Source: Vulcanimicrobiota bacterium
GTDB lineage: Bacteria; Vulcanimicrobiota; Xenobia; Xenobiales; JADMJV01
Assembly (NCBI GenBank): GCA_050250895.1
Contig: JBFWNU010000001.1
Coordinates: 2,278,210-2,342,209, forward strand
DNA length: 64,000 nucleotides
Direction: 5' to 3'
Part shown: one piece after another, positions 11,401 through 35,553 of the stretch
Layout of the letters: each line of letters begins with the position of its first letter
Position numbering within the stretch: the first letter of the stretch is position 1
The notes under the pieces: model-generated
Seen by the model: the letters and a program-made list of their open reading frames with translations, nothing else
What the model was told of the DNA's origin: nothing
The model's database searches: none
Translations under genes and position numbers: made by a program

Positions 11401-11533
11401 CAACGGAAGGCTCCAGGAGTCGCTTCAGGAGCTGAAGGATTGCTACGCCGTAGACATCGCCTTTAAGGACGTGCGCGAATGGGTGCGTCGAATCGAGGCG
11501 GAGATTGCGGGAGGGCCCCGCTTCCCGCGATAA
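5405..11533 (+). CDS. Giant TPR-repeat protein (2042 aa) with a ~1000-aa disordered PEPE / ΦLF-repeat core
   Basis: GGAAGGAGG RBS before ATG 5405 (the track ORF starts at 5363). N-terminal TPR of ~330 aa. Central low-complexity region (~nt 6410-9700) holds (EP)n tracts and about 45 DLFS/GLFD repeats. C-terminal TPR solenoid of ~600 aa. The C-terminal module is shared with the next gene. Confidence 0.85.
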   Translation: MADAVALLSDAQRSYTTGDWDQAIDAYKKALEADPNNREACEKMAKVYAIRGMYKSVISTYYQLIDILESSDDLNGALEVADWVMALKPDSAEARAKRILVFQKKGDTEEVVRQSRGLARLYIELGEGDKSIQLLQQAQKADPDNLDIGLELAEMYVSHGHIQDGANQYRKVANAFQDQGNLERAAEAYKRMKVIVSDDPGVLLTLGRLYVDLRRYNEAEQEFRSILRHNLSHEEALLELGRVCQLKGQFRDAILAFNKILSINPDVVMAKEKLGELYKAQGLVPEAIKNFLAAAQAYLEIDEKDKAIHLYQIVLGLDTSNATACRELTNLGAPLIGIEPEPEPEPEPVPEPVAQAEPEPEFEPEPEFEPEPEPEVAVMQPPPAPAPAAGGGRANGFASSEPAMAGPPRAPRAGLTPPDSPRPGLTTPESPRPGLTAPDAADSPKRGLVRRGGDASGGLRPGLRGPGGPGGPGGKPTLGLRDHSGPLRKGLEREGGVGDKPMLMRKPMLERRSPADEKPTLSRNEAPRPTPEPISAREPEPTEFEPLEPLEPLEPLEAVEPPAISPPPALPPLEPEPEPEPEFDEPMAEVEHAEEADFDGEEDESGEERGGLGQSLLGSRQERPSLRGGGLLGAGPRLGIKPGPSLGKPKLGGLGGLRSTKPEGRPGGLLRPGQPTGRIEDDEQGAEESASFDNPEEVNGLFSQMRDRAKPAEAPTPSSELMSPEGGLFDGERSESDSLFGEPAPAGGLFDSPAPSPAQDLFGEPEPAGGGLFDSPAQTDKDDLFGSSPASSGGLFDSPAEPAGGLFDTSPASRAADSLFGEPPAPSAPSNDLFSEPAPAATASNEDLFSSPPASEPAGLFESPEPAPADSLFSSAPRNEEPPSLFDSRPVDESSLEPPSAEPVAQDGSDPFGSSHDLFDQPPPADADGLFGGQATQSDLFDQPAPVADDLFSAPAEAPAADLFSSAPAPASDLFSQPAAPVEEPAAPSNDPFHQSAAPASDLFSQPAAPAGDLFSQPAAPAGDLFSQPAAPAADLFSQPAAPAGDLFSQPAAPSSDPFSQPAASDDPFSPAPASAESAEAPASDLFSQSPAPAGDLFSQTPAPAAGDLFGQSSAPAADLFSQTPAGDLFSQAPANEPFSPAPEPDPAPAADLFSQAPAGDLFSAAPVEAPSSGLFEQPAGGDLFSAAPAPAPVEQPVASEPAPAGGLFDEPAPEARSELFSPAPETAPASEAAEELFSPTTPEAPAEAAAGGLFDEPAPAAGGLFDPAPAAGLFSEATGSSQDKKAAVSAAFERFRKDKPGGGSQEPVPGEEEPRLSSEIVLPPRPQDSPDFLQALEATLPRPASAEPEPEAAPPSVELDLEPSHESAEVPVAPPAHESFEIEEPVATAEPEVVVPEVVPEPVPEPEPEPEVLGRPTVSMSIEEESPDEHVSQADDVRNSLGDSDVATSISVYRKAVEESPDNLVLRTRLADIHMQYGLLEDAVVQYRQIIKRNPASISLRHRLIQAHLWNESHDQAAAALMELAELHSEQGNHQDALDALQTVLSLDPHHFEARKRLVDRFTALDEAKLAAHHLRQLAEAALTKGNVEEAISAFKQLMEISDDPSFQDRLAQVYESQGDNQQALLHYRQLVARYQSEEKWEEAAAATERIAELDPEAVETRTGLIDLYQKLGLTDKVIEQQFELARYHQVRDELPEAIALYERVVAARPQKYDARRLLVDAYLDSGKVPAALQQSEALTEHYLTTKDHTTAIELYRRLVEADSENVELRERLIKFYNMAEDSTNAMEQLLILAGLHRANERYSQAVDCYRRALELDESRVDLHYELAQIHVDHLDDLESAMRQFRRVYELAPTNLEAMERYIRMLLDAGSAGEAGEVLNKLVESSDSGDQVREALLSELKAKIERDPADMSARFNYGELCFHLGELDLGIEQFQQTRRDPAFELKSYNMLGLCFAEKTGFNMLDLAIKQFRKGLETRGHSDQDYLELKYNLAMLQYRNGRLQESLQELKDCYAVDIAFKDVREWVRRIEAEIAGGPRFPR

Positions 11534-14600: not shown

Positions 14601-16001
14601 CATCTTGAACGGGGCGAAGTCGACGAGGCGCTCGAATGCGTCAAGGAGATCGTCAATCTCCAACCGCTCAACCTCGAGCTGCGCCAGTCGCTGGGCGCGA
14701 TGTTCCTGCGCGCTGGCTTCTTGGAGCAGGGTCAAAACCTGCTCGAAGAGTTGGCCCGCGACGCCGAAGACAAAAGGGACAACGAACGTCTGCTACGGGT
14801 GCTGTGGACGCTGGTTCGCTCCTTCGAAGAGAACGAGCAGTGGGAGATCTCGCTCGAATATCGCGAGCGCATCGCCGACCTGTTGCGCTCGCTTGATCAA
14901 TGGCAAGAGGCCCACGAGGAGTATCTCAAGATCATCGAGGGCTACCTCATCCACGAGCAGAAAGAGCCCAGCGAGCCCATTTTCGTCAAGGTTATCGATG
15001 GCTTCTTCCGCAATCGCGTGGTTCCCGAGGGGCTCAGCAAGCTCGACGGCCTGGAAGAGTCGCTATCTGATGCGGGGCATCACAAGATGGCGCTGCTGGT
15101 TCGCGAGCGGACGGCCTCGATCATGGAGCGACTCGACGAGTGGGATCGGGCTATCGAGATGTACGACGGCATCTCCGAGCGCTATCTCGAGTTGGGCGAA
15201 GTCGAGCTGGGTCTCGAGTTCCGCCGCCGCGCCGCCGATCAGGCTCTAAATCACGAGCGCATCGAGCAGGGTGTCGAGCATCTCTTCGTGCTGGCAGGCG
15301 CCACCGTGGAGCACAGGGGACTCGAAGAGGCTCGGCCGGTCCTCGATGAACTGCGCAAGACGGCGCAAGATGATGTCGGCTATCTCGAGCGCCTGGGTGA
15401 TGTCCTGTTCAAACACTCTCTGTTCGAAGAGGCTCGTCCCATCTACGCCGAGGTGCTCGAACGAGAGCCCGGACGCCCCGAGGCACTCTCGCGGGTAGCC
15501 ATCATCTATGCCCGCGAAGGGCGCCTGGAAGAGGCCGCCGATGTGGCCAAGCAGATCTTCTCGAAAGGTCTCGTGTCCAGGATCATCAAAGAATATAAAG
15601 AAGCTACTGGTTTCACCGAGGGCGACGCTGGTTCGCACGTGCGTCTCGGGCAGTTCTATCGACAGATGGGCTTCCTGGAGGAGGCGATTCGTGAGTTCCT
15701 GGTCGCAAGCCAGGATCCCAGCCGACTGTTGGGCGCTTACAATCATTTGGCCCAATGCTTCCGGCAGCAGGGTTATTTGGAACTCGCGGTCAAGCAGTTC
15801 CAGAAGGCGCTCGACCAGCCCGGTTATCGGGACGAAGAGTTGCTTGAGTTGCGCTTCAATCTAGCCTGCGCGCTAGAAGATATGGGGCGACATAAAGCAG
15901 CCCTGGCGGCGTTCCAGGAGTGCTACGTCATCGACATCCGCTATCGAGAAGTGGCACAAAGGATCGAGGCCCTCATGGCGAATATGCACGCAGAGGTATA
16001 G
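11625..16001 (+). CDS. Giant TPR-repeat protein (1458 aa), paralogous C-terminus to the preceding gene
   Basis: Continuous TPR-like helical repeats throughout. Its last ~100 aa align with the last ~100 aa of the 5405-11533 product (LG.CF..G…LA.KQF.K.L…ELLEL.NLA…CY..DI). Confidence 0.85.
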   Translation: MPDQKEVIQQWIQHANTLATQGRWDEALAAYNKVVEVDQHNLDVRQHIISISLKKGNYSEVIHQHMDCAEIYHQQGDRDAAIERYEEILRLQETVEGHGSSFDGGGDAAQVHQLVSQVKPEIYHQIGDYHLERENVDLALQYLRKSQELQPGRWDTHMALGRAYMKKSMDKEAIGEFQEVLRLAPDESALAYENLGEVFVRQGRPPHSTVVWFQHAAEYYLKKQKLADATRAYERILEFDPQNKEILYNLGELYAQQGLKEQAVRTYRTLAELYEKEGLLDKVIQLYETVVSWDPDSQWATDKLISIYEGVLGRNSNNISVRVRLIEHLAAQGRRGELGPHYLALAQGHVERGMLDEAVKASRQLLELEPQNIQAREILGDIYLKKDMHSEALDIFQQIVKIYRAQGNEQAALQFQQRLVEVFPQAPELLYQVALSLRDKGDHEGALRELDRIIAQRPDDIKALAYKAELLGRLNRLDESIQTYARVLQMDPQRTDVRKLIIELLIKTNRLEESSRQIGVLSPDDPDIPALRSRIILLYIETRRLEQAEQELAYLPEENERRLVFRKELVKLYLDAGNLDKAFEGLPQIPRSDRERNSLVTRLLEIPLAKGDLETAAKTIHRLPEDDPLRLSFQRRLVASYVEAGRLDEAADECLRLPADDEARSGFVSRLIGGFLTQGELEKASREIYRLSEGDPLRNSFMGQLIEAYLSAGELERAAQEVGRLSREDEIRPRYHRRIIQAYLNASKFEEAERDILALDDSDPEKRSFLRLLIQKYLTLGQLDRVREVVNRMPDDMDEKKQYLDGLVHNYLDTGDLAGARHQIYQMAESEASQGNHKEAERLYREILAYQPADAEIRLRLSQEIAVQGQTERAREGMLVLAGRFHRENNVTSAADVYSRMLEVDPNDLNARYKLGTLWAEQGQTAQALEQFGALAKVYLEQNLPEVAQKVLNKILELDPKDMEHRRQAIRLLIRNLRFEEATEHYRALMGIHLERGEVDEALECVKEIVNLQPLNLELRQSLGAMFLRAGFLEQGQNLLEELARDAEDKRDNERLLRVLWTLVRSFEENEQWEISLEYRERIADLLRSLDQWQEAHEEYLKIIEGYLIHEQKEPSEPIFVKVIDGFFRNRVVPEGLSKLDGLEESLSDAGHHKMALLVRERTASIMERLDEWDRAIEMYDGISERYLELGEVELGLEFRRRAADQALNHERIEQGVEHLFVLAGATVEHRGLEEARPVLDELRKTAQDDVGYLERLGDVLFKHSLFEEARPIYAEVLEREPGRPEALSRVAIIYAREGRLEEAADVAKQIFSKGLVSRIIKEYKEATGFTEGDAGSHVRLGQFYRQMGFLEEAIREFLVASQDPSRLLGAYNHLAQCFRQQGYLELAVKQFQKALDQPGYRDEELLELRFNLACALEDMGRHKAALAAFQECYVIDIRYREVAQRIEALMANMHAEV

Positions 16002-22139: not shown

Positions 22140-24500
22140 GTGGCGGGCGACGCGCGCTTAGAGCGAGTCTCGAGCGCGTTTTTTCGTCTGATCGACACCC
22201 TTTGCCTGGGGTTGCTCATGGGGCTGGTCTTCTTTCCGGCCATCCCCGCCCTGATCTACCTGGCTTCCCTGCTCTGGGGCTTTGACGCCCAGACTCTGTT
22301 GACCGGTGAAGTTACGCCGGGCAAAGTGTTTCTCTATATCTGCGCGGGCACCGATAGCGGGGCTCAACTGGCTTCGGGAGGCAGCCTGCTGCGCGGACTG
22401 GGTCTGTTGGCCCTGGCTTTCTGGCTGCTGTTGCCCCGGCAACTGGCCGCTCCGGTGCGACCGCTGGCCCGACTGACTCTGGGACTGGGCCTGGTCGGAG
22501 TGGTGGGGGCATTGAGCTGCGACCATCCTCGAGACGCCCTGGTGGGTTGGATGGATCTTCTCTTGCCCCTGGCTCTGGCCATCATGGCCGCCGACCTGGG
22601 CTGGCGCGAGCGCAACAAGAATAGCCTGTTGGCTGCCTTCGTGGCCAGCCTGGCAGTGGTCTTGCTGGTGGCCTACATCTCCTTTGCGCTGGGCTTTTCT
22701 CCCGACGAGCGCATGCGCGGGTCGTTCTTTCATCCCAACATGCTGGCGGCTTACCTCTTGCTCGGCCTGGGACCGCTGGCCTATATGGTGCTGGCCGAAC
22801 AAGGCCAAGACCGGCCAGGCCAGGCGGCGTTGGCTCCGGTGCTGGCCGCTCTGCTGGGCTCGCTGCTGTTGACGGGCTCGCGGGCCGCCTGGCTGGCGGT
22901 AGCGCTGTTGGCGGGCCCGCTGGGGGCCGGACTGGTCAGCCGCTTCTCGCAACGGCGCCAGCTGTGGATGCTGGGCTTTCCCCTGGCAGGAGGTATCCTC
23001 TGCCTGGGAGCCCTTCTTCACTGGTGGATCGTGCTGGTGCTCGCGGCCGCCCTGCCGCTGGTCTGGTTGAGGCATCTCTCCGAGCCCCGCAAGTTCTTGC
23101 CCAAGCTGATCGTTGTGCTGGTTTTGGCCGGCTGCTTCGGATTGGGCTTGATGACGGTCGATCGCCAGAACAGTCCCACCAACCGAATCGAAGGGGCCAT
23201 CTCTTCCAACTCGTTCAAGGCCAGGCTGCATTTCTGGTCGGCCTCACTAGCGATCGCTCGCAACCATCCCTGGTTGGGGGTCGGCCCCGACGGATTTCAC
23301 CGGCACTACCCGGCGTATCAGACCGACATCCGCTATTTCTCGAAGTTCACCCACTCCTTGCCCATGTCGCTGTTGGCCGAGTGCGGCCTCCTCTTCACGG
23401 TGCCGGCCGTGGCCTGGTTGTGGCTGGCGGGGTCGGTCCTGTGGGCAAGAGCCAGAGAAGGTGACTTTGGGCTGGGCTGGGCGATTTTCTGGTCGGTCGC
23501 CATGTGGCTGGTCCACGCCTGCTTTGACGTCGACCTGCAGTTTCCGGCCCTGGGGTTCACGGCCGGTCTTCTGCTCGGTTTGGCGCTAGCCCAGGAACCG
23601 TCGGCCGAAGAGCCAGCCGAGCAAGAGCCGCGCTCTCAATGGTCGATTCGGCCCGGCTTGCTCAGCCAGTATCCCCTGGCCGTGGTGGCCGTGATGCTGT
23701 GTCTCGTCAATGCCCAGTTGACCTTTGCTGCCCATCATACCCGGCTGGCCGACCTGGCCTCGGGAGTGTCGGAATATAAAGCTGCCGCCGACCTCTATCG
23801 CGAAGCCATGCGTCTGGACCCCTTCGACGGCGAGAACTATCGCAAATTGGCTCTGGTAGCCATGGTCGCCCCCGCCCTCGAGGTGCCTGACGAGACTCTC
23901 GAGCAGCTGAGCCAACAGGCTCTAGCTCTCGACCCCCATCGCCCCGTCTGTCATAATTTACGCGGCCGTGTTTTGGAGCGGCTTGGCCAGGACGGGCGAC
24001 CGGCCTTCCGCCGTGCCCTCGAGCTCGACAGCTTCAACTATCCCTCGTTCTATCGTGACCTGGCCGAGGCCTATCGAGTCCGCGGCCAGCCCCAGGTTGC
24101 CCTCCAGCTCGTCGAGCAGGCCCTGCGCCGGTTCCCCGATGAGGCCCGGACTCAGGTGCAAGACAGCCGGGTGAATACCCTCACCAGCCAGATGGCAGGG
24201 CTCTACGAAGAGCAGGGCTTCCTCTTAATCGAGCAAGAATCGACCCTTCCGGCCTCGCAGCGGGCCTTCGAGCAGGCTCTGGCCCTGGAGGATTCGGCCA
24301 ATCGCCGCTTCGGCCTGGCCGTCAGCCTGATGGGGCAAAAGCAGTTCGCCCGGGCCGCCGAAGAGTTCGAGAAAGTGGTCAAGCTCGACGATTCGTCACG
24401 CCAAACCTGGGAATTTCTCGGCCACTGCTACGCCAAACTCGGCCGCCTCGAAGACCTCAAACGCGTCAACCGCTCCCTGTCGACGCGAAGCGTCGATTAG
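22140..24500 (+). CDS. O-antigen ligase (Wzy_C)-like polytopic membrane protein fused to C-terminal TPR repeats
   Basis: ~12 predicted TM helices with LTGSRAAWLAVALLAG (Wzy_C-like) then a ~250-aa TPR tail. GTG start adjacent to the upstream TAG; start uncertain. Confidence 0.7.
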   Translation: MAGDARLERVSSAFFRLIDTLCLGLLMGLVFFPAIPALIYLASLLWGFDAQTLLTGEVTPGKVFLYICAGTDSGAQLASGGSLLRGLGLLALAFWLLLPRQLAAPVRPLARLTLGLGLVGVVGALSCDHPRDALVGWMDLLLPLALAIMAADLGWRERNKNSLLAAFVASLAVVLLVAYISFALGFSPDERMRGSFFHPNMLAAYLLLGLGPLAYMVLAEQGQDRPGQAALAPVLAALLGSLLLTGSRAAWLAVALLAGPLGAGLVSRFSQRRQLWMLGFPLAGGILCLGALLHWWIVLVLAAALPLVWLRHLSEPRKFLPKLIVVLVLAGCFGLGLMTVDRQNSPTNRIEGAISSNSFKARLHFWSASLAIARNHPWLGVGPDGFHRHYPAYQTDIRYFSKFTHSLPMSLLAECGLLFTVPAVAWLWLAGSVLWARAREGDFGLGWAIFWSVAMWLVHACFDVDLQFPALGFTAGLLLGLALAQEPSAEEPAEQEPRSQWSIRPGLLSQYPLAVVAVMLCLVNAQLTFAAHHTRLADLASGVSEYKAAADLYREAMRLDPFDGENYRKLALVAMVAPALEVPDETLEQLSQQALALDPHRPVCHNLRGRVLERLGQDGRPAFRRALELDSFNYPSFYRDLAEAYRVRGQPQVALQLVEQALRRFPDEARTQVQDSRVNTLTSQMAGLYEEQGFLLIEQESTLPASQRAFEQALALEDSANRRFGLAVSLMGQKQFARAAEEFEKVVKLDDSSRQTWEFLGHCYAKLGRLEDLKRVNRSLSTRSVD

Positions 24501-25498
24501 ACCGGCGTGTAGAGACCGCCCAGGTGGCGCAAGACCAGGCCTTTGAGTTCGAGATGCACCAGGGCCCGGGCCAGGGCCGGAGCGTCAAAGCCCGTCTTGA
24601 CGCTCAGTTCGGCCATACTCGAGCCGCCGGGGTCAAGAGCCTGGTAGACTTGAGCGAGCGGTTCTTCAAGCTGGGGCGGAGCAGCCAGCTGGGTCGCATA
24701 ACCCAACTGATCGATGATGTCGTCCACCCCGCGCACGATGGATGAGCCCTCATAGAGCAGTTTGTGAGTGCCGTCCGAGTTGGGGTTGCCCACGTGACCG
24801 GGGGCCGCCATCACGGTCCGGCCCAGATCCTGGGCCAGGTCGGCTGTGATCAAAGCGCCGCTGCGGAGGCCGGCTTCGACCACGACCACTACCTGGCACA
24901 ACCCGGCTACGATGCGATTGCGGGCCGGAAAGCGCCAGGCGGCGGGGGCGGTTCCGGCCGGGTACTCGCTGAGCAGACAGGCCTGGCGAGCCATCTGGGT
25001 CCGCAGGGCCCGGTTGGTCCGAGGGTAGTCATAGTCGAGGCCGCAGCCAAGCACGGCTACCGGGTGAGCCTCGGAGCGAAAGCTGGTCATGGCGCCCTGG
25101 TGGGCGGCCGAGTCGATGCCCATCGCCAATCCACTCACCACCACCACCCCGCGAGCGGCCAGGTCGGCACCCAGACGGTAGGCCAAAGTCCGTCCATAGG
25201 GAGTGGCCCGGCGAGAGCCCACGATGGCAACCCGGGGATGCTCGGGGCTGGGAAAGGGCAGCCCGGCGCGATAGAGCAGCGCTGGCGGGTCGCACAGATC
25301 CAGTAGCGAGATGGGATACTCCAGGTCCCCGGGAGTCAACGCCGCAAACGGATCGCTCGGGTTGCAGTGCTTCAATTTTAGGCGCTTGACCACGGCTTCG
25401 GGGCTGCCCATCTGTTCGACCAGAGCAGCGATCTGGCGCGGACCCAGTCGAGACAGACCCAGAGTCAGCCAGGCTTGGCGTCGGTTCGGGGCGCTCAT
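24497..25498 (-). CDS. dprA: DNA processing protein DprA (Smf)
   Basis: Rossmann-like DprA core VVVSGLAMGIDSAAHQGA. The start is taken at the internal ATG (MSAPNRR…) with a GAGGAG RBS; the longer track ORF runs to 25573. Confidence 0.8.
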   Translation of the reverse strand: MSAPNRRQAWLTLGLSRLGPRQIAALVEQMGSPEAVVKRLKLKHCNPSDPFAALTPGDLEYPISLLDLCDPPALLYRAGLPFPSPEHPRVAIVGSRRATPYGRTLAYRLGADLAARGVVVVSGLAMGIDSAAHQGAMTSFRSEAHPVAVLGCGLDYDYPRTNRALRTQMARQACLLSEYPAGTAPAAWRFPARNRIVAGLCQVVVVVEAGLRSGALITADLAQDLGRTVMAAPGHVGNPNSDGTHKLLYEGSSIVRGVDDIIDQLGYATQLAAPPQLEEPLAQVYQALDPGGSSMAELSVKTGFDAPALARALVHLELKGLVLRHLGGLYTPV

Positions 25499-25672
25499 CG
25501 ATGCTCCTCGGAGTAGCCAGCCGGCGAGAATTTTTCCATAGTGAGTGAACTCATGATTTGTTGCTCCTCTCACCGTCCAGTATGAAGCCGATTTAAGACC
25601 GTAGCGTGTCGAGCTTGTGAACGGTCGATTGCTAGGATGTTTCTAAATCCTTAACGTCGAATGGGCGGGCCT

Positions 25673-26203
25673 ATGCGATATCGTTCCACTACGATTGTTT
25701 GCGTCAGCCGCAACGGCCAGGTCGCCATGGCTGGCGATGGTCAGGTTTCGGTTGGCCAGACAGTCATGAAACATCACGCCCGCAAAGTCCGGCGCATGGG
25801 CGACGGCAAGGTGCTCGGCGGCTTTGCTGGCTCGGCTGCCGACGGCCTGACTCTGTTCGATCGCTTCGAGACGCGTCTGTCCGAGTACGGCGGACAACTC
25901 AAACGAGCGGCCGTCGAGCTGGCGCGCGAGTGGCGGATGGACAAATTCTTGCGTCGCCTCGAAGCGATGCTGCTGGTGGCCGACCGTGAGACGGTGCTGG
26001 TGCTCTCGGGCAACGGCGACGTGCTCGAGCCCGATCACGGGGTGGCGGCCATCGGTTCGGGCGGCTCTTACGCTATGGCGGCCGCCCGGGCCTTGCTGGC
26101 TCACACCGACATGTCGGCCGAAGAGGTGGCGCGGTGCTCGCTCGAGATCGCTGCCGAGATCTGCGTTTACACCAACAAGGAGATCGTTCTGGAGAGTCTA
26201 TAG
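25673..26203 (+). CDS. hslV: ATP-dependent protease subunit HslV
   Basis: Strong identity to HslV ([21 protein letters not shown]…[14 protein letters not shown]…[16 protein letters not shown]). A 5-residue extension MRYRS precedes Thr. No hslU follows. Confidence 0.9.
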
Positions 26204-26206
26204 CAC

Positions 26207-28003
26207 TTGTCCTCCCAACCGTCGAAGCTCGGACCCGTCCTGGCGGCCATGCTGGCAGGTCTTCCGCTTTTGTGCGGGTTGCTGAGCGGCCGTTCCGAGC
26301 TGCTCGCCCCCTTCTTGGCACTGGCTGCCGTGGCCGCGGCGGCGGGCTGGTGGATCGGTCAGCGCTCGGTGCTGTTGAGCAACTTCGAAGAGCTGCAGGC
26401 TCAGCTCGATAGCGAACGCACCCGGGCCGCCCAGCTTGAACAAGAACAGGCAGCGGCCCGCCAGCTCCATCTGCGCGAGCGCAATGCGCTTCACGATCTG
26501 GGGCTCGACTTTTCGCGCAACGAAGAATCGGAAGACTTCCTGGGCCAGGTGGCCAACCACCTGGTGGAGTTGATGGGCGGCGGCATGCTGACCATCTACC
26601 TCTGCGAAGGCGTCGATCGACTTGAGCGCGCCTGCGTGGCGGGCTTTCAAGCCGAGCAAGCCGGGCAGACCCTGGCCGTGAAGGTTCCGGGTTTTCAAGA
26701 GCTCGCCAACGGCCAGACCGGCTGCCTCGAGTTGACCGAGCAACCGCTTTGCGACCAACCCTTGTTGCGGGGGCGCTTTCCGTCGGAACGGCTGACCCGC
26801 TACCTGGCGCTACCCATGAACAGCGGCGGCGAGTTTGTCGGCCTGATGGAGGTTTGTCCTGAGGGCGAACTTGATCCCGCCGTGCTCGAGTTGATGGTGA
26901 TGCTGGCGGCGGTCGTGGCGGTCGTGGTGCGCAACTTGCGTCTCCACCGCCAACTCAAGGGCGAGCGAGTGTTCTCGTATGTGGTCCTCGAAGAGATGGA
27001 AGACGGAGTCTTCACCCTCGACGCCGAGCTGAAACTGGCCACCTTCAATCGGGCCGCCGAGACCATCACCGGTTGGACCCGGCAGCAGGTCCTGGGGCGT
27101 GCCTGTCACGAGGTCTTCAGCCAGGACAACTACGGCCGCCTGCTCGAGCAGATGGCCACCGGCGAGGTGGCCGTCGTGCCTCAAGAGCTGAAGATGCCGG
27201 TGCGCGACGGGGTCCAGAAATACATCTACTTCCAGCCCTCCCGCCACGAGAGTCCGCGCCCCACCGGGCCCAGCCTGGTGGTGGTGTTTCGCGACATCTC
27301 CAAAGTGCGAGAACTCGAGAATCTACGCAACGACTTTACCACCACTCTGTCGCATGAGCTGAGAACTCCGCTGACCAGCATTAAAGGCTACATTCACACC
27401 CTGATGCACAAGAAAGCCGAGAAGTTCAGCAGCGAGAAACTGCAGAGTGTGCTGGCTATCGTGAACCATCAGGTGGACCGACTCAGTCGCTTGATCGCCG
27501 ACCTGCTCGAGGCTGCTCGCCTGGGCAGCCAGGCGCTCGAGGTGCATCCCCGACCGGTGCGGGTGGCCGGGCTCATCAGTGAGGTGATCGAGGCCTATCG
27601 CGAGAAAGAGCCGGGCTTTCCGGTGAGTCTCGAATGCCCCGATGGGGCTCAGGTACTGTGTGATCCGGACCAGATTCGCTACGTGCTGGAGCATCTGCTT
27701 TCCAACGCCGTGAAATACTCGATTCCGGGCGGTCAAATCCAGATCGTGGCCAGCCCCGAGTCGAGCTTACTGAGGGTGGCCATCCGCGACGAAGGGGTCG
27801 GGATCCCCTTTGACCAACAACAGCGGATCTTCGAGATGTACCATCGGGTGGACACCGAGAACACGCGATCCCACTACGGAGTTGGAATGGGCCTCTATAT
27901 CGCCAAGAAGGTGATAGAGGCCCATGGAGGTGGGATTGAGGTGGAGAGTGCCCCGGGTTACGGGTCGACCTTCTCCTTTACCTTACCGCTCAAACAAAGA
28001 TGA
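26207..28003 (+). CDS. Membrane-anchored GAF/PAS sensor histidine kinase
   Basis: N-terminal TM segments, GAF-like and PAS-like regions, HisKA SHELRTPLTSIKGYI, HATPase GVGMGLYIAKK…GGGIEVES. Confidence 0.85.
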   Translation: MSSQPSKLGPVLAAMLAGLPLLCGLLSGRSELLAPFLALAAVAAAAGWWIGQRSVLLSNFEELQAQLDSERTRAAQLEQEQAAARQLHLRERNALHDLGLDFSRNEESEDFLGQVANHLVELMGGGMLTIYLCEGVDRLERACVAGFQAEQAGQTLAVKVPGFQELANGQTGCLELTEQPLCDQPLLRGRFPSERLTRYLALPMNSGGEFVGLMEVCPEGELDPAVLELMVMLAAVVAVVVRNLRLHRQLKGERVFSYVVLEEMEDGVFTLDAELKLATFNRAAETITGWTRQQVLGRACHEVFSQDNYGRLLEQMATGEVAVVPQELKMPVRDGVQKYIYFQPSRHESPRPTGPSLVVVFRDISKVRELENLRNDFTTTLSHELRTPLTSIKGYIHTLMHKKAEKFSSEKLQSVLAIVNHQVDRLSRLIADLLEAARLGSQALEVHPRPVRVAGLISEVIEAYREKEPGFPVSLECPDGAQVLCDPDQIRYVLEHLLSNAVKYSIPGGQIQIVASPESSLLRVAIRDEGVGIPFDQQQRIFEMYHRVDTENTRSHYGVGMGLYIAKKVIEAHGGGIEVESAPGYGSTFSFTLPLKQR

Positions 28004-28016
28004 TGCGCCGCCGGGG

Positions 28017-28280
28017 CTAGTCGTCTTCCCAGTCTTCCTCATCTTCGAAGTCTTCGTCGTCCCAATCGTCGTCGTCGTCGTCGAAGTCTTCGTCCTCTTC
28101 CTCTTCCCAGTCGAGGTCTTCATCTTCTTGCCAGACGGAATCTTCGGGTTGGGTTAAACTTTCTTCGTCGGGCTCGAAGTCGTCATCGTCCCAATCATCG
28201 ACGTCACCATCTTCTTCTTCTTCGTCTTCGTCTTCTTCTTCGAAATCATCATCGTCGTCATCGGGGACGATTTCTGGCAT
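28017..28280 (-). CDS. Hyper-acidic small protein (88 aa, ~70% Asp/Glu, spaced Trp/Phe)
   Basis: MPEIVPDDDDDDFEEEDEDEEEEDGDVDDWDDDDFEPDEE…DEDFEDEEDWEDD*. Start chosen at the internal Met because the longer ORF to 28871 overlaps mutS. Confidence 0.5.
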   Translation of the reverse strand: MPEIVPDDDDDDFEEEDEDEEEEDGDVDDWDDDDFEPDEESLTQPEDSVWQEDEDLDWEEEEDEDFDDDDDDWDDEDFEDEEDWEDD

Positions 28281-28490
28281 GCTTTCGAATTGCTGGTCCC
28301 AGTCCAACGGCTCTCTCCTTTCGAGGCTCGGATGACCCTGAGATCGTTCAAAGATACCCCGAGCAGTTCCTGCGACCTGGAATCGATCTTGGAAATTCTT
28401 CTCCGCGAACAGGCTTGTGCTAGCGAGGTCCCGGCGGCGAACGCAGCTTCGGCGGGAAGGTCGTAACGGGGGGTCGAACTCGCGGGCCTG

Positions 28491-31079
28491 ATGATTGATT
28501 CCGACAAGCTCACTCCACTCTTTGTCCAGTATTATAGCCTGAAAGAGGCCAATCCCGACTGCGTGATGTTGATGCGGGTGGGCGATTTTTACGAGGCCTA
28601 CGGCGACGATGCCGAATTGCTCGCGCGTGACGCTGAGATCGTCTTGACCTCGAAGGAGGCGGGTGGCGGTCAACGCCTCTCCATGTCGGGCGTGCCCTAT
28701 TTTGCAGTCGATCAGTATCTTCGTGTCATGGTCGAAAAAGGCCACCGGGTGGCCATCGCCGAGCAGATGGAAGACGCTCGCCAGGCCAAGGGACTCGTGC
28801 GTCGCGAGGTGATCCGGGTGGTCACGGCCGGCACCATTCTCGACCCCCAGTTGCTCGACGACAAGCAGCACAACTTCTTGATGTGCCTTTGCCCGACCGG
28901 CGAAGAAGTGGGGCTGGCGGCGGCCGATGTCAGCACCGGCGAGTTCGCCTGCAGCGAGCTCCCGCTGCTAGCCGAGCGCGTGCTCGACGAAGGCTGGCGC
29001 TATCGGCCGGCCGAGGTGGTGCTGGCGGGCAAGCGCGAGGCGCTGAGCGGTTTTGAACGCTTCCCCGAACTGCTCGAGGCGACCCGTGTCGACTCGCCCG
29101 AGAGTTTGAGCTACAAGCAGGCTCAAGAGATCGTGCGCAAGCAGTTTCGGCTGGCCTCGCTGCAGAGTTGTGACCTCGAGGCTCGCAAGGCGGCCGTGTT
29201 GGCCGCTGCTCACCTGCTGCGTTATCTGCAACAGACCCAGCGCAGCAGCGAGATCACGCTGTCACCGCCGCGGGGCTATTCGGTGGCCGACCACATGGTC
29301 ATCGACAACACTTCGCGGCGCAATCTCGAGCTGACCGAGACGCTGCTGGGTCGCGAGCGCAAAGGCAGCCTGTTGTGGGCTACCGACCACACCTGCACCT
29401 CGATGGGGGCGCGCCGGCTGCGCCAGTGGTTGCTGCGCCCGCTACTCGACGTGAAGGCGATCACAGCTCGCCATCAAGCGGTGGGCGCCCTCACCGGCGA
29501 CTACGGGCGCTGCCAGGAGTTGCGCCGCCAACTCGAGCGCATTCTCGATATCGAAAGGCTACTAGCGCGGGTTGTCTATCAAACCGCCAACGCCCGTGAC
29601 CTGCGGGCTCTTCAACAGTCTTTGGCGGCCATGCCAGCCTTGCGCGAGACCGCCTCGGGGCTGGGTGACGCCACCCTGTCACGCCTGGCCGCCGGGCTTG
29701 ACCGCCTCGACGATCTGGCCAGTTTGCTCGACCGGGCGCTGGCCGAAGAACCTCCGGTCTCGCTGCGCGAAGGGGGCTTGATCGCCGAGGGTCACCACGC
29801 CGAACTCGACGAGTTGCGAGGTCTGCGTACCTCGGGTAAGGAGTGGATCGCCTCCTTGCAAGAGCGCGAACGCGAGCAGACCGGCATCCGCTCGCTCAAG
29901 GTGGGTTTCAACCAGGTGTTTGGCTATTATCTCGAGGTCACTCGTTCGAATCTGGGCTCGGTGCCCGACTACTATATTCGCAAGCAGACGCTCTCGAACG
30001 CCGAGCGCTATTTTACTCCCGAACTCAAGGAATACGAGGCCAAAGTGCTGGGCGCCGAGGACCGCATTCGCGAACTGGAATACACCCTCTTTTGCGAGGT
30101 GCGTGACCAGGTCGGTGCCCGGGCTGCTCAGCTTCGTGAATTGGCTGGCGCCGTGTCGGAACTCGACGTGCTGGCCGGGTTCGCCGAAGGAGCGGTGCGC
30201 CACGACTGGATCTGCCCCGAGATGCTCGAAGAGAACCTGCTGGAGGTCGAGGGGGGCCGTCATCCGGTGGTCGAGCGGGCGCTGGACCTGGGCTTTGTGC
30301 CCAACGAGTGCCGCCTCGACAGCGAGGAACGATTGGTGGTCTTGACCGGACCCAACATGAGCGGCAAATCGACCTATCTGCGTCAGAATGCTCTCATCGT
30401 GGTGATGGCTCAGATGGGCAGTTTCGTGCCGGCCCGACGCGCTCGGGTGGGTATCACCGACCGGGTCTTCACCCGGGTGGGCGCGTCCGACGACCTGCAT
30501 CTGGGGCAGTCGACTTTCATGGTCGAGATGAGCGAGGCGGCCAACATTTTGCTGCACGCCACCCCGCGCTCGCTGGTCATTCTCGACGAGATCGGACGCG
30601 GCACCAGCACCTTCGATGGGCTGGCCCTGGCCCGGGCCATCGCCGAGCATCTCTATCATGAGGTCAAGGCGAAGACGCTGTTTGCTACCCATTTTCACGA
30701 GCTGACCCACCTGGCCAAGCGCCTGACCGGCATTCGCAACTATCGGGTGGCGGTGCGCGAGAATCGTGACGATATCGTCTTTCTGCATCGCATCGTGCCG
30801 GGCGGTGCCGATCGCAGCTACGGCATCTATGTGGCCCAGTTGGCGGGCGTGCCCGAGGCGGTGCTCGAACGGGCCAAGGTGCTCCTCAAGGAACTCGAAA
30901 AGGGTAGCAAGAAGGGGCCCGACCAGGCCCGCGACAGCCATCAGTTGTCGTTGTTTGCCGGCGTGGAAAGTCCCGGTTGGACCGAAGAGTTAGCCAATCT
31001 GGACCTGGCTCGTCTGACTCCGGAACAAGCTCTGGCCAAACTGCATCAATGGAAGAACCGCCTGCTCAGCTGTGTCTGA
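28491..31079 (+). CDS. mutS: DNA mismatch repair protein MutS
   Basis: MutS domain I N-terminus (TPLFVQYYSLKEANPDCVMLMRVGDFYE), Walker A GPNMSGKST, C-terminal dimerisation region; 862 aa. Confidence 0.95.
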   Translation: MIDSDKLTPLFVQYYSLKEANPDCVMLMRVGDFYEAYGDDAELLARDAEIVLTSKEAGGGQRLSMSGVPYFAVDQYLRVMVEKGHRVAIAEQMEDARQAKGLVRREVIRVVTAGTILDPQLLDDKQHNFLMCLCPTGEEVGLAAADVSTGEFACSELPLLAERVLDEGWRYRPAEVVLAGKREALSGFERFPELLEATRVDSPESLSYKQAQEIVRKQFRLASLQSCDLEARKAAVLAAAHLLRYLQQTQRSSEITLSPPRGYSVADHMVIDNTSRRNLELTETLLGRERKGSLLWATDHTCTSMGARRLRQWLLRPLLDVKAITARHQAVGALTGDYGRCQELRRQLERILDIERLLARVVYQTANARDLRALQQSLAAMPALRETASGLGDATLSRLAAGLDRLDDLASLLDRALAEEPPVSLREGGLIAEGHHAELDELRGLRTSGKEWIASLQEREREQTGIRSLKVGFNQVFGYYLEVTRSNLGSVPDYYIRKQTLSNAERYFTPELKEYEAKVLGAEDRIRELEYTLFCEVRDQVGARAAQLRELAGAVSELDVLAGFAEGAVRHDWICPEMLEENLLEVEGGRHPVVERALDLGFVPNECRLDSEERLVVLTGPNMSGKSTYLRQNALIVVMAQMGSFVPARRARVGITDRVFTRVGASDDLHLGQSTFMVEMSEAANILLHATPRSLVILDEIGRGTSTFDGLALARAIAEHLYHEVKAKTLFATHFHELTHLAKRLTGIRNYRVAVRENRDDIVFLHRIVPGGADRSYGIYVAQLAGVPEAVLERAKVLLKELEKGSKKGPDQARDSHQLSLFAGVESPGWTEELANLDLARLTPEQALAKLHQWKNRLLSCV

Positions 31080-32575
31080 GCCGGCGCCACGGAGGGATAT
31101 TGGGTTTAGGGCGTGACCGGGTCGACTTGACCCTGATTTGCCTGCGTTTGGCCGTGCTCGTTCTGACGGCGGCCAAGAGTCTGGGGGGTAAAGCCAGCGA
31201 GGACCAGTGGGACCCGCGCGTGGTCGGGGCGGTGGCCGTCATCTATCTCTTGCTCTCGATGTCGGTCGAATTGCTGGTCAACAAGCGTTGGAAAACCAGC
31301 GCTCTGGCCGCCTCGGATCTGGTGGTGGGTTCGTTGCTTTATGCTTTCCATCCCGATGCCACCCTGTCGTTCTTGCCGGCCCTGGGTGTAGTCGAAGCCT
31401 TTCGCACCAACCCGGCCTTCGGCGGGGGGGCGGCCGCCGTGGCGCTGCTCTTGCTAGCTCAGCTCGGCTCGCTCTCGCACGGCGGAACGGATTGGGTGCT
31501 CGGTCACCTGGTGGTGCAGGTCGCCGTGGTTTCGTTTGCCAGCGGGGCGGGCTTTTTGGCCTGGAGTCTTCAGCGCGTGTCCGGACCGGCCGGCACTTTC
31601 GAGCACCTGCTCTCGACCACACTCTTTCCGGCCCGAGCTTCGGTGGAGGAAGTGATCGAGCGAGTGCTCGACCTGATGGATCCGCTCTTCGGAGCCGAGC
31701 GGGCGGTCGTCTATCTGCACCACGAGGACGACGACAAACCGGCCCGGATGCGCGCCGTCGGCAAGCAGAGCGAGGGCTTTGAGGACTTTCAGCTCGACCA
31801 GCGCAGCTCGGTGCTGGTGAGCGTGTTAAACGATCGGGAAGGACGCTTGTTAGGGCCGGTGACCAAAGGCACCGAGCAGGTCATTCCCGAGGGATTGCTC
31901 GGCTCGGGAATGGTGGCGCCGCTGATCGTCGAAGGACGCCCCGTCGGGGCCTGCCTGATTACTCACGCCGCCCCCGAGAAGTATCGAGCATCTGACCTTG
32001 AGCGATTTAAGTTGGTAGCCACCCAGCTGGCCACTAGCCTGGGTCGCATCGAATTGCAGCAACCAGGAGGGGGCTTGGCCAAAAACGACGCCGTTACCGG
32101 ACTTTTCACCCACGCATACTTTCAAGACCATCTGGGCCGGGCTATTTCCAAGGCCAAATATCAGAATGGCACGGTGGCTCTGATGATTCTCAATGTGGAT
32201 TTCTTCAAGCGGGTCAACGACCGCTACGGTCACAGCCAGGGCGACTCCCTGCTGCGCCAGGTGGCCGGGGTAGTGCGCTCGACGGTGCGACCCGAGGACA
32301 CCGTCTGTCGCTTCGGACCCGACACGTTTTCGGTCACCATGCCTGACACCAATCGCGCCAACGGCGCTATCGCCGGCGAGAGACTGCGCCAGGCCATCGA
32401 GCAGAACGAATTCGTGGTCGGCAACGAAATCATCGCCCTCACGATCTCGGCGGGAGTGGCCGCCTTTCCTGAAGACGTCGAGACCAAGAAAGAGTTGATC
32501 GACAAAGCCGAAGAGGCTCGCTTCGAGGCCACTCAGCGGGGCCGCAACAAGGTCTGCTCGGCCGGAGATTCGTGA
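31049..32575 (+). CDS. Membrane GAF-GGDEF protein with degenerate active site (RFGPDTF)
   Basis: Several N-terminal TM helices, GAF-like middle. GGDEF fold motifs (LMILNVDFFKRVND…GHSQGD) but GG(D/E)EF is replaced by GPDTF, with RPED just upstream. Start uncertain (31049-31130). Confidence 0.75.
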   Translation: MEEPPAQLCLSRRHGGILGLGRDRVDLTLICLRLAVLVLTAAKSLGGKASEDQWDPRVVGAVAVIYLLLSMSVELLVNKRWKTSALAASDLVVGSLLYAFHPDATLSFLPALGVVEAFRTNPAFGGGAAAVALLLLAQLGSLSHGGTDWVLGHLVVQVAVVSFASGAGFLAWSLQRVSGPAGTFEHLLSTTLFPARASVEEVIERVLDLMDPLFGAERAVVYLHHEDDDKPARMRAVGKQSEGFEDFQLDQRSSVLVSVLNDREGRLLGPVTKGTEQVIPEGLLGSGMVAPLIVEGRPVGACLITHAAPEKYRASDLERFKLVATQLATSLGRIELQQPGGGLAKNDAVTGLFTHAYFQDHLGRAISKAKYQNGTVALMILNVDFFKRVNDRYGHSQGDSLLRQVAGVVRSTVRPEDTVCRFGPDTFSVTMPDTNRANGAIAGERLRQAIEQNEFVVGNEIIALTISAGVAAFPEDVETKKELIDKAEEARFEATQRGRNKVCSAGDS

Positions 32576-35553
32576 CCAGCAACGTCCAAGAGCGGCGTTC
32601 GGCCGCCGAGCGCGCCTCGATGGCTTCGAGTCTGGCCGAGATCTGCTCGGGCCTCACCGACGAGCAGCTCGAGGCTGTCCGGCATGGTTCGGGGCCGCTT
32701 TTGATCGTGGCCGGTGCGGGCACCGGTAAGACGACCGTGGTCACCCGCCGGATCGCCTATCTGATCGCCTCGGGATTAGCTCAACCTTCGGAAGTGCTGG
32801 CCCTGACCTTCACCGAGAAGGCGGCGGCCGAGATGCAGGAGCGCGTGGATGTGCTGTTGCCCTACGGCTATGCCGACATCCAGATCTCGACCTTTCATTC
32901 CTTTGGCGACCGCCTGTTGCGTCAGAACGCCCTCGAGATAGGCTTGAGCCCCGACTTCAAGGTCCTTTCTGGCCCCGAGCAGGTGCTGTTCTTGCGCGAC
33001 AACCTGTTTCGCTTGCCGCTGGAGCGCTATCGCCCTCCCGGCAATCCCACCGGCCACCTGCAAGCCCTCGTCTCCCATTTCGGCAAGGCCAAGGATGAGG
33101 ACCGGGCCCCGGCCGAGTATGTGCGCTTTGCCGAGGCGCTGGTCGAGGCCGCTGGCGACGAGCCCGAGGCCCGCGACCGGGCCGAGTCGCAACTCGAGTT
33201 GGCCCGCTGCTACCACACCTATCAGAAACTGATGACCGAGCAAGGTTATCTCGACTTTGGCGACCAGGTGTGGCTGGTGCTCGAACTTTTGCGGCAACGC
33301 CCGGCTCTGCTCGAACGACTGCGCCAGCGCTATCGGTTCGTGCTGGTCGACGAGTTTCAAGACACCAACTATGCCCAGTTTGCCCTGGTCAAGATGCTGG
33401 CGGGCGAGGCTCCCAATCTGACCGTGGTGGGCGATGACGACCAGTCGATCTATCAGTTTCGCGGCGCCGCCCTGGGCAACATCCTCGAGTTCACCGAGGT
33501 CTATCCTCAGGCCCACCAGGTAGTGCTGCGCACCAACTTCCGTTCCACCCAAACCGTGCTCGACTCGGCTTACAAGTCGATCGTGCACAACAACCCCGAG
33601 CGCCTCGAGGTGCGCAACGGCATCGACAAGCGTCTGGTGTCGGATCGCAGCCAGAAGAGCACCGAATCCGATTCCGAGATTGAATACACCTCGTTTGACC
33701 TGGTGTCGTCCGAGGCCGAGGCGGTGGCCGAACGCATCGCCGAGCTGGTCGAAAAACAAGGCCACGCCTATTCGGATTGCGCGATTCTGGTGCGGGTCAA
33801 CCGCGAGGCCGACCCTTACCTGCGGGCCCTCAACATGAAGGGCATCCCGTTCCGGTTTACCGGCAATCGCGGCCTCTACTCCCGGCCCGAGATTCGCTTC
33901 GTGACCTCGTTCTTGCGTTCGCTTTGCGACCCCACCGACAGTATCAGCCACTTCCACCTGGCCTCTCACGAGCTATTCGCCTTTCCTCGTTTGTCGCTGG
34001 TGTTGCTCTCGAGTTATGCCAACCGCCGCAACCTGCCCCTGCGCCGGGTCTTCGAACTGCACGGGCTAGCTCTCGAGCCCAGCGACGAAACCCTCGACAT
34101 CGACCTGCCCAGCCGCGAGGCCATCGATGGTTTTCTCAACTGTCTCGAGCAGTATCTCGAGCGCATCGCCGACGAAACTCCGGGTCGCATCCTCTATCGC
34201 TTCGTGACCGAGACGGGCTGGCTAGAACAGCTGACCCGGGGCCAGCAAGAGGGCGAGATCGCCATCCAGAATCTGGCTCGCTTCTTCGAGATTATCAAGA
34301 ACTTCGAGACCCTCTATCCGGGTGCCCAACTGCCCCAGTTCGTGCGCCATCTCGACTTGCTCATCGAAGCCGGCGACTCGCCGGCCGTGGTCGAGGCCGA
34401 TGCCGGCACCGAAGCCGTCGAGGTACTGACGGTCCACAAATCCAAGGGGCTCGAGTTTCCGGCTGTCTTTCTGGTGGGTCTCTCCGAAGGGCGCTTTCCC
34501 ACCCGCGAGCGCGTCGCCGCCCTCGAGTTTCCGGCCGAGTTGATGCGCGACCCCGAGGCGGGCAGCGCCGAGCGCCACGTGCAAGAAGAGCGGCGCCTGT
34601 TCTATGTGGCCGTGACCCGGGCCAAAGAGTGGCTCTGGCTGTCGAGTTCTTTTGATGCCGGCCAGGGCCGCGCTCAAAAGGTCAGCCGCTTCGTGCTCGA
34701 GGCGCTGGATCGTCCCCGGGTGGATCTGGCCGTGGTGCGCACCTCTTCGCTCGAAACCCTCAATCGCTTTGCGCCCCAGCCGGTGGCCGAACAGGGCTGG
34801 GCCAAGATGCACCCGGATCGGATGCTGACGCTATCCTTTCGCAAGATCGATGACTATCTCACCTGCCCCCAGAAGTATAAGTTCGTGCAGGTGCTGCGGG
34901 TGCCCATCTTGCCGCACCACTCGGTGGTCTATGGCAACGCCCTTCACAGCGCGGTTTCGCTCTGCCTCGAGGGCAAGATGAAAGGCGAGATGCCTGCCTT
35001 CGAGGACCTCGAGGCCGAGTTCAAGCGAGCCTGGACAGGTGAGGGTTTTCTCACCCTCGAGCACGAGCAGCAACGCTTCCAGGCCGGCCTGACCGCCCTG
35101 CAGAGTTTCTACGACCACGAGCTAGAGCAAGAGTTGGTGCCGCTGCACGTCGAGAAAGACTTCGCTTTCACGGTGGGCCGCAATAAGGTGATTGGGCGCT
35201 GGGACCGGGTCGACTCGCTGGCCGGCGAAATCATTCTCAGCGACTACAAGTCGGCGGCCGTGGCCAATCAAGAGCAAGCCGACACCCGGGCCCGCGAAAG
35301 CCTGCAACTATCGCTGTACGCCCTGGCCTATCGCCAGCAAGAAGGCGTGCTGCCCCGCGAGGTGCGCCTCATCTTTCTCGAGACCGGCCTGGTGGGCCGC
35401 TCGACCGTCGACAGCGCCCGCCTCAACGATGCCCTCTCGAAAATCCGCCGCGCCGCCGCCGGCATCCGCGCCCGCGACTACACGCCCAAACCGCGGCAAC
35501 GAGTGTGCAGCACCTGCGCCTATCGAGAAATCTGCCCCGCCACCACCAGTTAG
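32572..35553 (+). CDS. UvrD/PcrA-family helicase fused to C-terminal 4-Cys PD-(D/E)XK nuclease (AddA/AdnB-like)
   Basis: GTG start overlaps the upstream TGA (GTGA). Walker A AGAGTGKTT, UvrD motifs. C-terminal ~250 aa with Cys at YLTCPQKY plus CSTCAYREICP (Cas4/AddB-type) and a DYK-like nuclease core. Confidence 0.85.
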   Translation: MTSNVQERRSAAERASMASSLAEICSGLTDEQLEAVRHGSGPLLIVAGAGTGKTTVVTRRIAYLIASGLAQPSEVLALTFTEKAAAEMQERVDVLLPYGYADIQISTFHSFGDRLLRQNALEIGLSPDFKVLSGPEQVLFLRDNLFRLPLERYRPPGNPTGHLQALVSHFGKAKDEDRAPAEYVRFAEALVEAAGDEPEARDRAESQLELARCYHTYQKLMTEQGYLDFGDQVWLVLELLRQRPALLERLRQRYRFVLVDEFQDTNYAQFALVKMLAGEAPNLTVVGDDDQSIYQFRGAALGNILEFTEVYPQAHQVVLRTNFRSTQTVLDSAYKSIVHNNPERLEVRNGIDKRLVSDRSQKSTESDSEIEYTSFDLVSSEAEAVAERIAELVEKQGHAYSDCAILVRVNREADPYLRALNMKGIPFRFTGNRGLYSRPEIRFVTSFLRSLCDPTDSISHFHLASHELFAFPRLSLVLLSSYANRRNLPLRRVFELHGLALEPSDETLDIDLPSREAIDGFLNCLEQYLERIADETPGRILYRFVTETGWLEQLTRGQQEGEIAIQNLARFFEIIKNFETLYPGAQLPQFVRHLDLLIEAGDSPAVVEADAGTEAVEVLTVHKSKGLEFPAVFLVGLSEGRFPTRERVAALEFPAELMRDPEAGSAERHVQEERRLFYVAVTRAKEWLWLSSSFDAGQGRAQKVSRFVLEALDRPRVDLAVVRTSSLETLNRFAPQPVAEQGWAKMHPDRMLTLSFRKIDDYLTCPQKYKFVQVLRVPILPHHSVVYGNALHSAVSLCLEGKMKGEMPAFEDLEAEFKRAWTGEGFLTLEHEQQRFQAGLTALQSFYDHELEQELVPLHVEKDFAFTVGRNKVIGRWDRVDSLAGEIILSDYKSAAVANQEQADTRARESLQLSLYALAYRQQEGVLPREVRLIFLETGLVGRSTVDSARLNDALSKIRRAAAGIRARDYTPKPRQRVCSTCAYREICPATTS

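Follow-up and report, generated by a model that had tools for sequence, protein, structure and literature searches.

Two described systems come closest to the protein considered here. The delta subunit of RNA polymerase (RNAP delta, RpoE) of Bacillota carries a disordered acidic C-terminal region with a net charge of −47 over 83 amino acids (PMC7749165), a polyanion proposed to work inside nucleic-acid channels. Prothymosin-alpha, a eukaryotic protein of ~110 amino acids, is a stand-alone, fully disordered polyanion that binds its basic partner, histone H1, with high affinity while disordered and competes it off DNA (PMC7661507; 10.1101/2020.04.17.046243). The phage acidic DNA mimic gp5.9, which occupies the DNA-binding site of RecBCD (PMC9836394), is a more remote precedent. 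Here we describe a hyper-acidic gene on the reverse strand of a 64,000-nucleotide stretch of the genome of a Vulcanimicrobiota bacterium (contig JBFWNU010000001.1, positions 2,278,210 to 2,342,209; hereafter the window), which lies at 28017–28307, back to back with mutS. An earlier note, made from the letters of the window alone, had pointed to this open reading frame (ORF) as a possible DNA mimic or a chaperone or anti-sigma-like acidic tail. We find that the ORF is a genuine, conserved protein-coding gene rather than an artefact and that its product belongs to no described family. We propose, with a probability of roughly 0.4, that this product would be a disordered polyanion with aromatic anchors that chaperones a basic nucleic-acid-binding protein or competes with nucleic acid for it.

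The minus-strand translation of 28017–28340 reads QGHPSLERREPLDWDQQFESMPEIVPDDDDDDFEEEDEDEEEEDGDVDDWDDDDFEPDEESLTQPEDSVWQEDEDLDWEEEEDEDFDDDDDDWDDEDFEDEEDWEDD, ending in MPEIVPDDDDDDFEEEDEDEEEEDGDVDDWDDDDFEPDEESLTQPEDSVWQEDEDLDWEEEEDEDFDDDDDDWDDEDFEDEEDWEDD before a TAG stop codon (28019–28017). Our preferred model opens at the TTG at 28307, which is preceded, across a 7-nt spacer, by the Shine-Dalgarno (SD) sequence AGGAG (28315–28319, within AAGGAG). Because the same arrangement is found in all nine orthologues described below, this start is better supported than the ATG at 28280 used in the earlier note (28017–28280), which is possible but lacks a good SD, or any comparable to that of the TTG. 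The ATG model yields 87 amino acids rather than the 88 first given, its 264 nt being 87 codons plus the stop. The accompanying figure of about 70% Asp/Glu (D/E) is correct for that model (61/87, with no Lys or Arg), and the peptide strings quoted with it are all present in the translation. From the TTG the product has 96 residues, of which 38 are Asp and 26 Glu (64 D/E, 66.7%), together with 6 Trp and 5 Phe; there is no Lys or Arg, the net charge is −64, and peptides such as SLTQPEDSVWQEDEDLDWEEEEDEDF are non-tryptic for this reason. The background in the long genes of the window is 13.9% D+E and 0.75% Trp, against which Trp is 8-fold enriched in the hyper-acidic protein. The D/E content is far above chance expectation, and no other ORF of the window reaches 50% D/E over 40 amino acids. 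The region also differs in base composition (G+C ~50%, versus 62% in the whole window) and in codon choice, with GAA supplying 85% of the Glu codons versus 32% in the window's long genes.

Related loci were retrieved through their MutS, 80 from genomes and 80 from metagenomes, and 1.64 Mb of them were scanned for acidic ORFs. All nine loci in which MutS is at least 61% identical to that of the window (designated L001–L007, L081 and L082) carry a hyper-acidic, Trp-punctuated ORF, in each case directly upstream of mutS and divergent from it, so the ORF singled out in the earlier note is indeed conserved in relatives. None was found in the ~150 more distant loci of the scan, and the gene is restricted to one sub-clade of Candidatus Xenobia (Eremiobacterota/UBP9). 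Acidic ORFs were confined to the equivalent position throughout; apart from them, the scan flagged only a 45% D/E stretch in L087 and L088, which is unrelated. In every orthologue an ATG, GTG or TTG follows 4–9 nt after AAGGAG or AAAGGA, so that an SD and start are conserved in 10/10 loci (the window and its nine relatives), and the products of 78–118 amino acids are uniform in composition (60–76% D/E, 5–7 Trp, net charge −57 to −64). Most members are essentially without basic residues; L006 and L007 have an internal basic patch, KRKRRL, reminiscent of the lysine tract of RNAP delta. The earlier note had also raised the possibility that the ORF is the acidic tail of a longer protein. We rejected this reading: the orthologues have stops from a few to ~70 codons upstream of their SD-preceded starts (at most 15 codons upstream in L003, L004, L006, L007 and L081), nothing is conserved outside the acidic region, and a 284-amino-acid ORF that extends the window sequence from a GTG at 28871 is an antisense shadow ORF through the first 380 nt of mutS.

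The pattern of nucleotide change provides independent evidence of coding. Differences at codon positions 1/2/3 number 8/10/57 between L006 and L007, 0/0/8 between L001 and L002 and 1/0/12 between L001 and L082, and length differences among the orthologues are whole codons in every case. These data bear on the suggestion that the tract is non-functional, that is, a purine-rich run or codon-repeat expansion that has simply stayed open, or the complement of a real gene encoding an antisense Val/Phe-rich hydrophobic protein. The gene does contain trinucleotide arrays (TCG x9.7 and TCT x10.7), the antisense of GAN codons is automatically stop-free (as in the plus-strand ORF at 27924–28157), and there is no database match. 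Set against this, the SD and start are kept in all ten loci, the TGG codons are conserved and the excess of third-position changes holds for the acidic frame alone. The antisense ORF is not the selected one, because third-position changes in the acidic frame would be its first positions; moreover, the ORF at 27924–28157 begins inside the neighbouring kinase gene and spans only half of the tract. We therefore regard a non-functional tract as highly improbable and reject the antisense ORF as the real gene on the codon-position evidence. Codon-level tandem arrays within the acidic gene, at 28020–28100, 28066–28094 and 28210–28241 (an 18-nt unit x4.5, TCG x9.7 and TCT x10.7), are a likely origin of the in-frame differences in length between orthologues.

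The acidic gene evolves faster than mutS. The window protein is 51% identical to that of L004, for which the MutS figure is 81%, and the corresponding values for L006 and L007 are 70% and 76%. Exchanges between Asp and Glu account for 17/31 substitutions in the L006/L007 pair and 5/5 in L001/L002, while subgroups keep their Trp positions: 5/5 are shared by L006 and L007, and again 5/5 by L003 and L006, whose MutS proteins are 67% identical. The C-terminal halves of the window and L004 proteins align as L-[DE]-W...F-DDDDDD-W-[DE]DEDF...W. The earlier note described the Trp and Phe residues as regularly spaced, which is only partly borne out: spacings of 4–6 are mildly enriched (18 observed versus 11.8 expected, p ~0.03) with a mode of 5, as in WDDDDF, WDDEDF and WDDDDW, but the aromatics are dispersed rather than periodic. 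Adjacency is avoided, spacings of 2 or less being depleted (3 observed versus 10.8 expected, p ~0.0015). Every member has an aromatic residue 3–9 residues from the C-terminus. In 7/8 of the sequences analysed for spacing this is a Trp at 3–8 residues, and in L001 it is a Phe 9 from the end; WASP-family Arp2/3 activators also end in an acidic-Trp tail. The C-termini themselves vary (WEDD, DDEDE, EDEEE, DEEDED, WEKKED, DEDDRD, KVELD, DDAPL). The tip of SSB is D-D-D-I-P-F-like, and a hydrophobic-Pro-Phe tip occurs in none of the acidic C-termini; Pup ends in GGQ/GGE and UBact in R-T/S-G-E/Q, and such a C-terminus was found in 0/10 acidic sequences. At the other end, every member begins with a short, less acidic segment containing hydrophobic residues (for example ITELEADLHLAF, LTELETDMEFAF, STELDSDYELSL, MQELDRQLGPLW and DWDQQFESMPEIV), and only 12–20 non-acidic residues precede the acidic tract. 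Judged from these comparisons, the conserved features are the extreme charge, dispersed Trp/Phe including one near the C-terminus, and the less acidic hydrophobic N-terminal motif, and selection acts on charge and aromatics rather than on exact sequence.

Such a pattern could also be produced by a protein with no specific partner, namely a sink that would buffer polyamines, metals or cations such as Mg2+ and Ca2+, or a stress protectant or general solubiliser that would work as an entropic bristle against aggregation. The extreme carboxylate density (60–76% D/E), the free interchange of Asp and Glu and the lack of any conserved globular feature are all what this idea would predict. It leaves unexplained the conserved dispersed Trp/Phe and the C-terminal aromatic, with Trp 8-fold above background, and the protein has no signal peptide and the gene no metal-handling neighbour. 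We consider such a role unlikely.

AlphaFold2, run on the single window sequence, returned a mean predicted local distance difference test score of 57, a predicted template modelling score of 0.14 and no secondary structure, and the protein is probably intrinsically disordered. Because charge is kept and Asp and Glu are interchangeable while the Trp/Phe residues and termini are fixed, it is best viewed as a putative disordered 'sticker-and-spacer' polyanion. We infer the following binding mode, partner and physiological effect. The acidic chain would wrap around the positively charged face by which a partner protein, or several, binds nucleic acid, with Trp and Phe acting as anchors in the partner's hydrophobic or base-stacking pockets, and the partner would be displaced, excluded or chaperoned relative to DNA or RNA by electrostatic competition. 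MutS would be the leading candidate partner, by gene position only.

The protein resembles the acidic tail of RNAP delta or prothymosin-alpha more than it does the folded DNA mimics. In common with RNAP delta it is a disordered, D/E-dominated bacterial stretch of large negative charge (−64 over 96 residues here), and its proposed action as a polyanion is of the same kind. In RNAP delta, however, a folded, RNAP-docking N-terminal domain carries the acidic region, whereas no folded domain and no Pfam match are found here. Membership of the RpoE family is not indicated, as a folded N-terminal domain of the HARE-HTH type is missing (no Pfam domain, and just the 12–20 non-acidic residues before the tract). 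Charge density is also higher here, the Trp/Phe punctuation is conserved, and the lineage and gene context are different. The likeness to prothymosin-alpha lies in a stand-alone polyanion that is (here, by prediction) fully disordered, but the present protein is bacterial and there is no demonstrable sequence relationship between the two. Prothymosin-alpha is without aromatic punctuation. The folded mimics (T7 Ocr, gp5.9, ArdA, DMP12/DMP19, Ugi and the anti-CRISPR mimics) are likewise small and acidic, with a much lower acidic fraction, and work by filling the sites at which DNA-processing enzymes bind DNA. Searches of Pfam, NCBIfam, PHROGs, PADLOC and the PDB gave no sequence membership in the described DNA-mimic families of the Ocr/ArdA/gp5.9/DMP type. 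A polyanionic disordered competitor or chaperone is thus a better description than a DNA mimic in the structural sense, and the chaperone or anti-sigma-like acidic tail mentioned in the earlier note is an alternative equally open with its DNA mimic reading.

Database searches were uniformly negative. Scans of Pfam, NCBIfam, PHROGs and PADLOC at E values up to 10 gave no match to the acidic protein, and a PDB search gave one chance match only (E = 3.5). When 5.8 billion proteins were searched with HMMER from word seeds, the window protein drew 2365 candidates and the L007 orthologue, whose sequence is more complex, drew 8000; none of them scored. phmmer, run in full over 1.84 billion representatives, returned 0 matches. 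Exact look-up of 10 variants of the acidic sequence found none in the protein collection, and look-up of the window MutS returned no record. The bias filter and composition correction of HMMER suppress scores for sequences of this kind, to which search tools are nearly blind, and because of this correction the null searches are uninformative on distribution and no proof of rarity.

The genomic context of the gene is constant on one side only. mutS itself (28491–31079, plus strand; MutS domains I–V) begins 183 nt from the acidic gene, and the divergent arrangement noted earlier holds in every locus that carries the gene: the right neighbour is always divergent mutS, 153–411 nt away, in 10/10 loci with three different left flanks. 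On the left, a PAS histidine kinase gene (26207–28003, plus strand) converges on the acidic gene in the window, with the two stops 13 nt apart, and the same neighbour is found in L004, L001, L002 and L082. It is not an obligate partner, being absent at that position in L003, L006, L007, L081 and L005. The first four of these have hslV there, and L005 (a UBP9 UBA1432 contig) has in place of hslV or the kinase a 582-amino-acid HExxH (zincin-like) protein, encoded at 76–1824 on the plus strand and converging on the acidic ORF, so that the left flank is not fixed. Retention of the mutS adjacency despite the changed gene on the other side is a modest sign that the gene is coupled to mutS, at least via a shared regulatory region, and is suggestive of a specific functional link to MutS.

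The divergent intergenic region (28308–28490, 183 nt) is shared with mutS and must hold both promoters. Within it lies a conserved 9-mer, AGTTCCTGC, at 28365–28373 on the plus strand (GCAGGAACT on the strand of the acidic gene), which is exact in 8/10 intergenic regions. Besides the window copy these are at 2273–2281 in L001, 5903–5911 in L002, 5774–5782 in L003, 5911–5919 in L004, 1820–1828 in L007, 2730–2738 in L081 and 3903–3911 in L082. L006 has a copy with one mismatch, and in L005 the motif overlaps the start codon of the acidic ORF (ATGCAGGAACTG). Outside this region the window shows no enrichment of the 9-mer, which lies at differing distances from the two genes in different loci and may be a regulator site or promoter element. 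Reading GCAGGAACT as a −35 element of the extracytoplasmic function (ECF) sigma factor type was rejected, since no consistent −10 element or spacing accompanies it. A second block, GTCGAAC (28473–28479, plus strand), lies 11–13 nt before the mutS ATG, where the SD of mutS would be expected. It reads GTCGAAC in 7/10 loci, with the variants CTCGAAC in L006, GTCGAAA in L004 and GTCGAAAC in L005, and the core TCGAA is present in 10/10. A further block, TTCGGCGGGA(A/C)G, is common to the window, L004 and L001. We also considered and dismissed a Cheo-type LexA box: in the window and L004, CGAACGCAGCTTCG (~28438–28451) departs from CGAAC-N4-GTTCG by one mismatch, and the other loci are without it. 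Rfam gave two sub-threshold chance matches only in the acidic-gene region.

Several observations weigh against the proposal of a disordered polyanion that competes for or chaperones a partner, or against its connection with mutS. The conclusion of disorder is weakened by the input to AlphaFold2, which was one sequence without an alignment. Folded DNA mimics place their carboxylates in phosphate-like geometry, and no fold is predicted for the acidic protein. A consensus scan for promoters and terminators found no sigma-70-like site and no terminator. A dprA-hslV-(histidine kinase)-mutS block is syntenic across the clade, and two loci with MutS ~50% identical, L008 and L083, keep the order hslV, histidine kinase, mutS without the acidic gene, the gap between kinase and mutS being only 38 nt in L083. 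Since the wider block is syntenic where the acidic gene is absent, the adjacency is partly simple inheritance, and within Xenobia there has been either a gain or a loss of the acidic gene 5′ of mutS. Finally, translating Escherichia coli ribosomes are reportedly destabilised by D/E runs that start ~15 residues into the protein (PMC9718836; 10.1101/2021.02.02.429294), and for this reason efficient translation of the ORF is not to be assumed.

The effect on ribosomes is also the basis of a different explanation, in which translation itself is what matters and the acidic run would be a ribosome-destabilisation sensor of Mg2+ or ribosome status, in the manner of MgtL-type leaders. Translation is reported to be aborted by such an arrangement, with D/E runs from ~15 codons after the start (PMC9718836; PMC12673854; 10.1101/2021.02.02.429294). 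Such leaders are much shorter, however, and here the Trp positions and the entire length of 80–118 amino acids are conserved. Nor is there a co-directional downstream gene for the element to control, the next gene being convergent and 13 nt away. A role as a translational sensor appears very improbable to us.

The more specific possibility that the protein is a MutS antagonist deserves consideration. It would mimic DNA in the clamp and mismatch-binding channel of MutS and so tune mismatch repair and anti-recombination. This is attractive in view of the divergent mutS adjacency across 10/10 loci and three left flanks, the common intergenic region with its conserved motifs, and the proximity of dprA, a natural-transformation gene. 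The support is nevertheless adjacency alone: divergent genes are not required to have a functional relation, no MutS feature was found that tracks the presence of the acidic gene, and there are relatives, as described above, that retain the hslV-histidine kinase-mutS order without it. We judge a dedicated MutS antagonist distinctly unlikely. A broader version, to which we give still less credence, is that of a new class of stand-alone bacterial disordered DNA mimic, a polyanionic microprotein with Trp anchors, co-regulated with mutS through a divergent promoter common to both, that would reversibly titrate MutS, DprA or the AddA-like helicase-nuclease encoded nearby off DNA. If true, the cell could use the disordered mimic to switch mismatch repair and anti-recombination, in transformation or under stress for instance, and the similar small ORFs of phage contigs described below would be a viral counterpart of the same trick.

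The flanking residues of the Trp side chains raise the alternative of a multivalent W-acidic ligand for repeat-domain proteins, such as those with tetratricopeptide repeats (TPR), in which a D/E-flanked Trp would dock in a basic groove and so scaffold or inhibit the partner, which would then not be a nucleic-acid binder. The kinesin-light-chain TPR ligand in SKIP is TNLEWDDSAI (PMC6214655), and LDWEE in the window protein and LEWDD in that of L004 match its core, with the D/E-flanked Trp and Leu at −2. More generally, DWD, EWD and DWE make up 31/45 of the Trp contexts, and three large TPR proteins are encoded within 25 kb in the window. Given a composition of 67% D/E, however, D/E-flanked Trp is expected from composition alone, which makes the likeness to SKIP weak evidence. 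The resemblance is moreover to a eukaryotic system in which the motifs are single and lie within large proteins, unlike the 5–7 sites in a bacterial polyanion here, and the linkage to TPR genes is known from the window only and is not shown in relatives. We find a W-acidic TPR ligand quite improbable. The TPR genes are of some note in themselves. A secretin gene (AMIN/STN/Secretin domains; 2937–5006, plus strand) is followed on the same strand by genes for giant TPR proteins at 5363–11533 (2056 amino acids) and 11625–16001 (1458 amino acids), the larger with a central low-complexity stretch that matches a nucleoporin FG-repeat model, and the third TPR protein, fused to an O-antigen-ligase domain, is encoded at 22140–24500.

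Sequences of similar composition also occur in viruses. One degenerate DNA pattern for DWDDDDWD, scanned against IMG/VR viral contigs, matched 15 of them. Small hyper-acidic, Trp-punctuated ORFs of 72–89 amino acids are found in L164 (oriented 3364–3648), L166, L171 (12611–12862) and L175 (3357–3593), with SD-like sequences before those in L164, L171 and L175, and acid-Trp C-terminal tails are attached to larger proteins in L162 and L174. None of the viral acidic ORFs matched a PHROG family. They are alike in composition, a likeness from which homology is not claimable, and on this evidence the hyper-acidic, Trp-punctuated type of sequence recurs.

If expressed, the acidic protein would be among the most charge-dense described, and a bacterial polyanion of a rare sort: free-standing, disordered throughout and selected for its charge and aromatic 'stickers'. 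Profile and homology tools can hardly see proteins of this type, and the class may be widespread and overlooked. Should the mutS link prove functional, the protein would represent a new protein-level way to modulate mismatch repair; should it not, the disordered polyanion would still offer a clean model for interactions of the polyelectrolyte type in bacteria. On the most ordinary reading, the locus holds a correctly annotated small gene, with function unassigned, in an uncultured lineage.

The wider neighbourhood is rich in genes of DNA metabolism. The gene order in the window is TPR/O-antigen-ligase, dprA, hslV, PAS histidine kinase, acidic gene (reverse), mutS, GAF-GGDEF and UvrD/PD-(D/E)XK helicase-nuclease. 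The mutS region is flanked by dprA (24497–25573, minus strand) and by the gene for the UvrD-helicase/PD-(D/E)XK nuclease, which is AddA-like (32572–35553, plus strand). The GAF-GGDEF ORF as listed (30977–32575) overlaps the 3′ end of mutS by ~100 nt, and its true start is therefore probably later. hslV (25661–26203, plus strand), which encodes a proteasome-type peptidase subunit, has no adjacent hslU; the PAS histidine kinase gene follows 4 nt downstream, and this hslV-kinase pairing recurs in L001, L002, L004, L008, L082 and L083.

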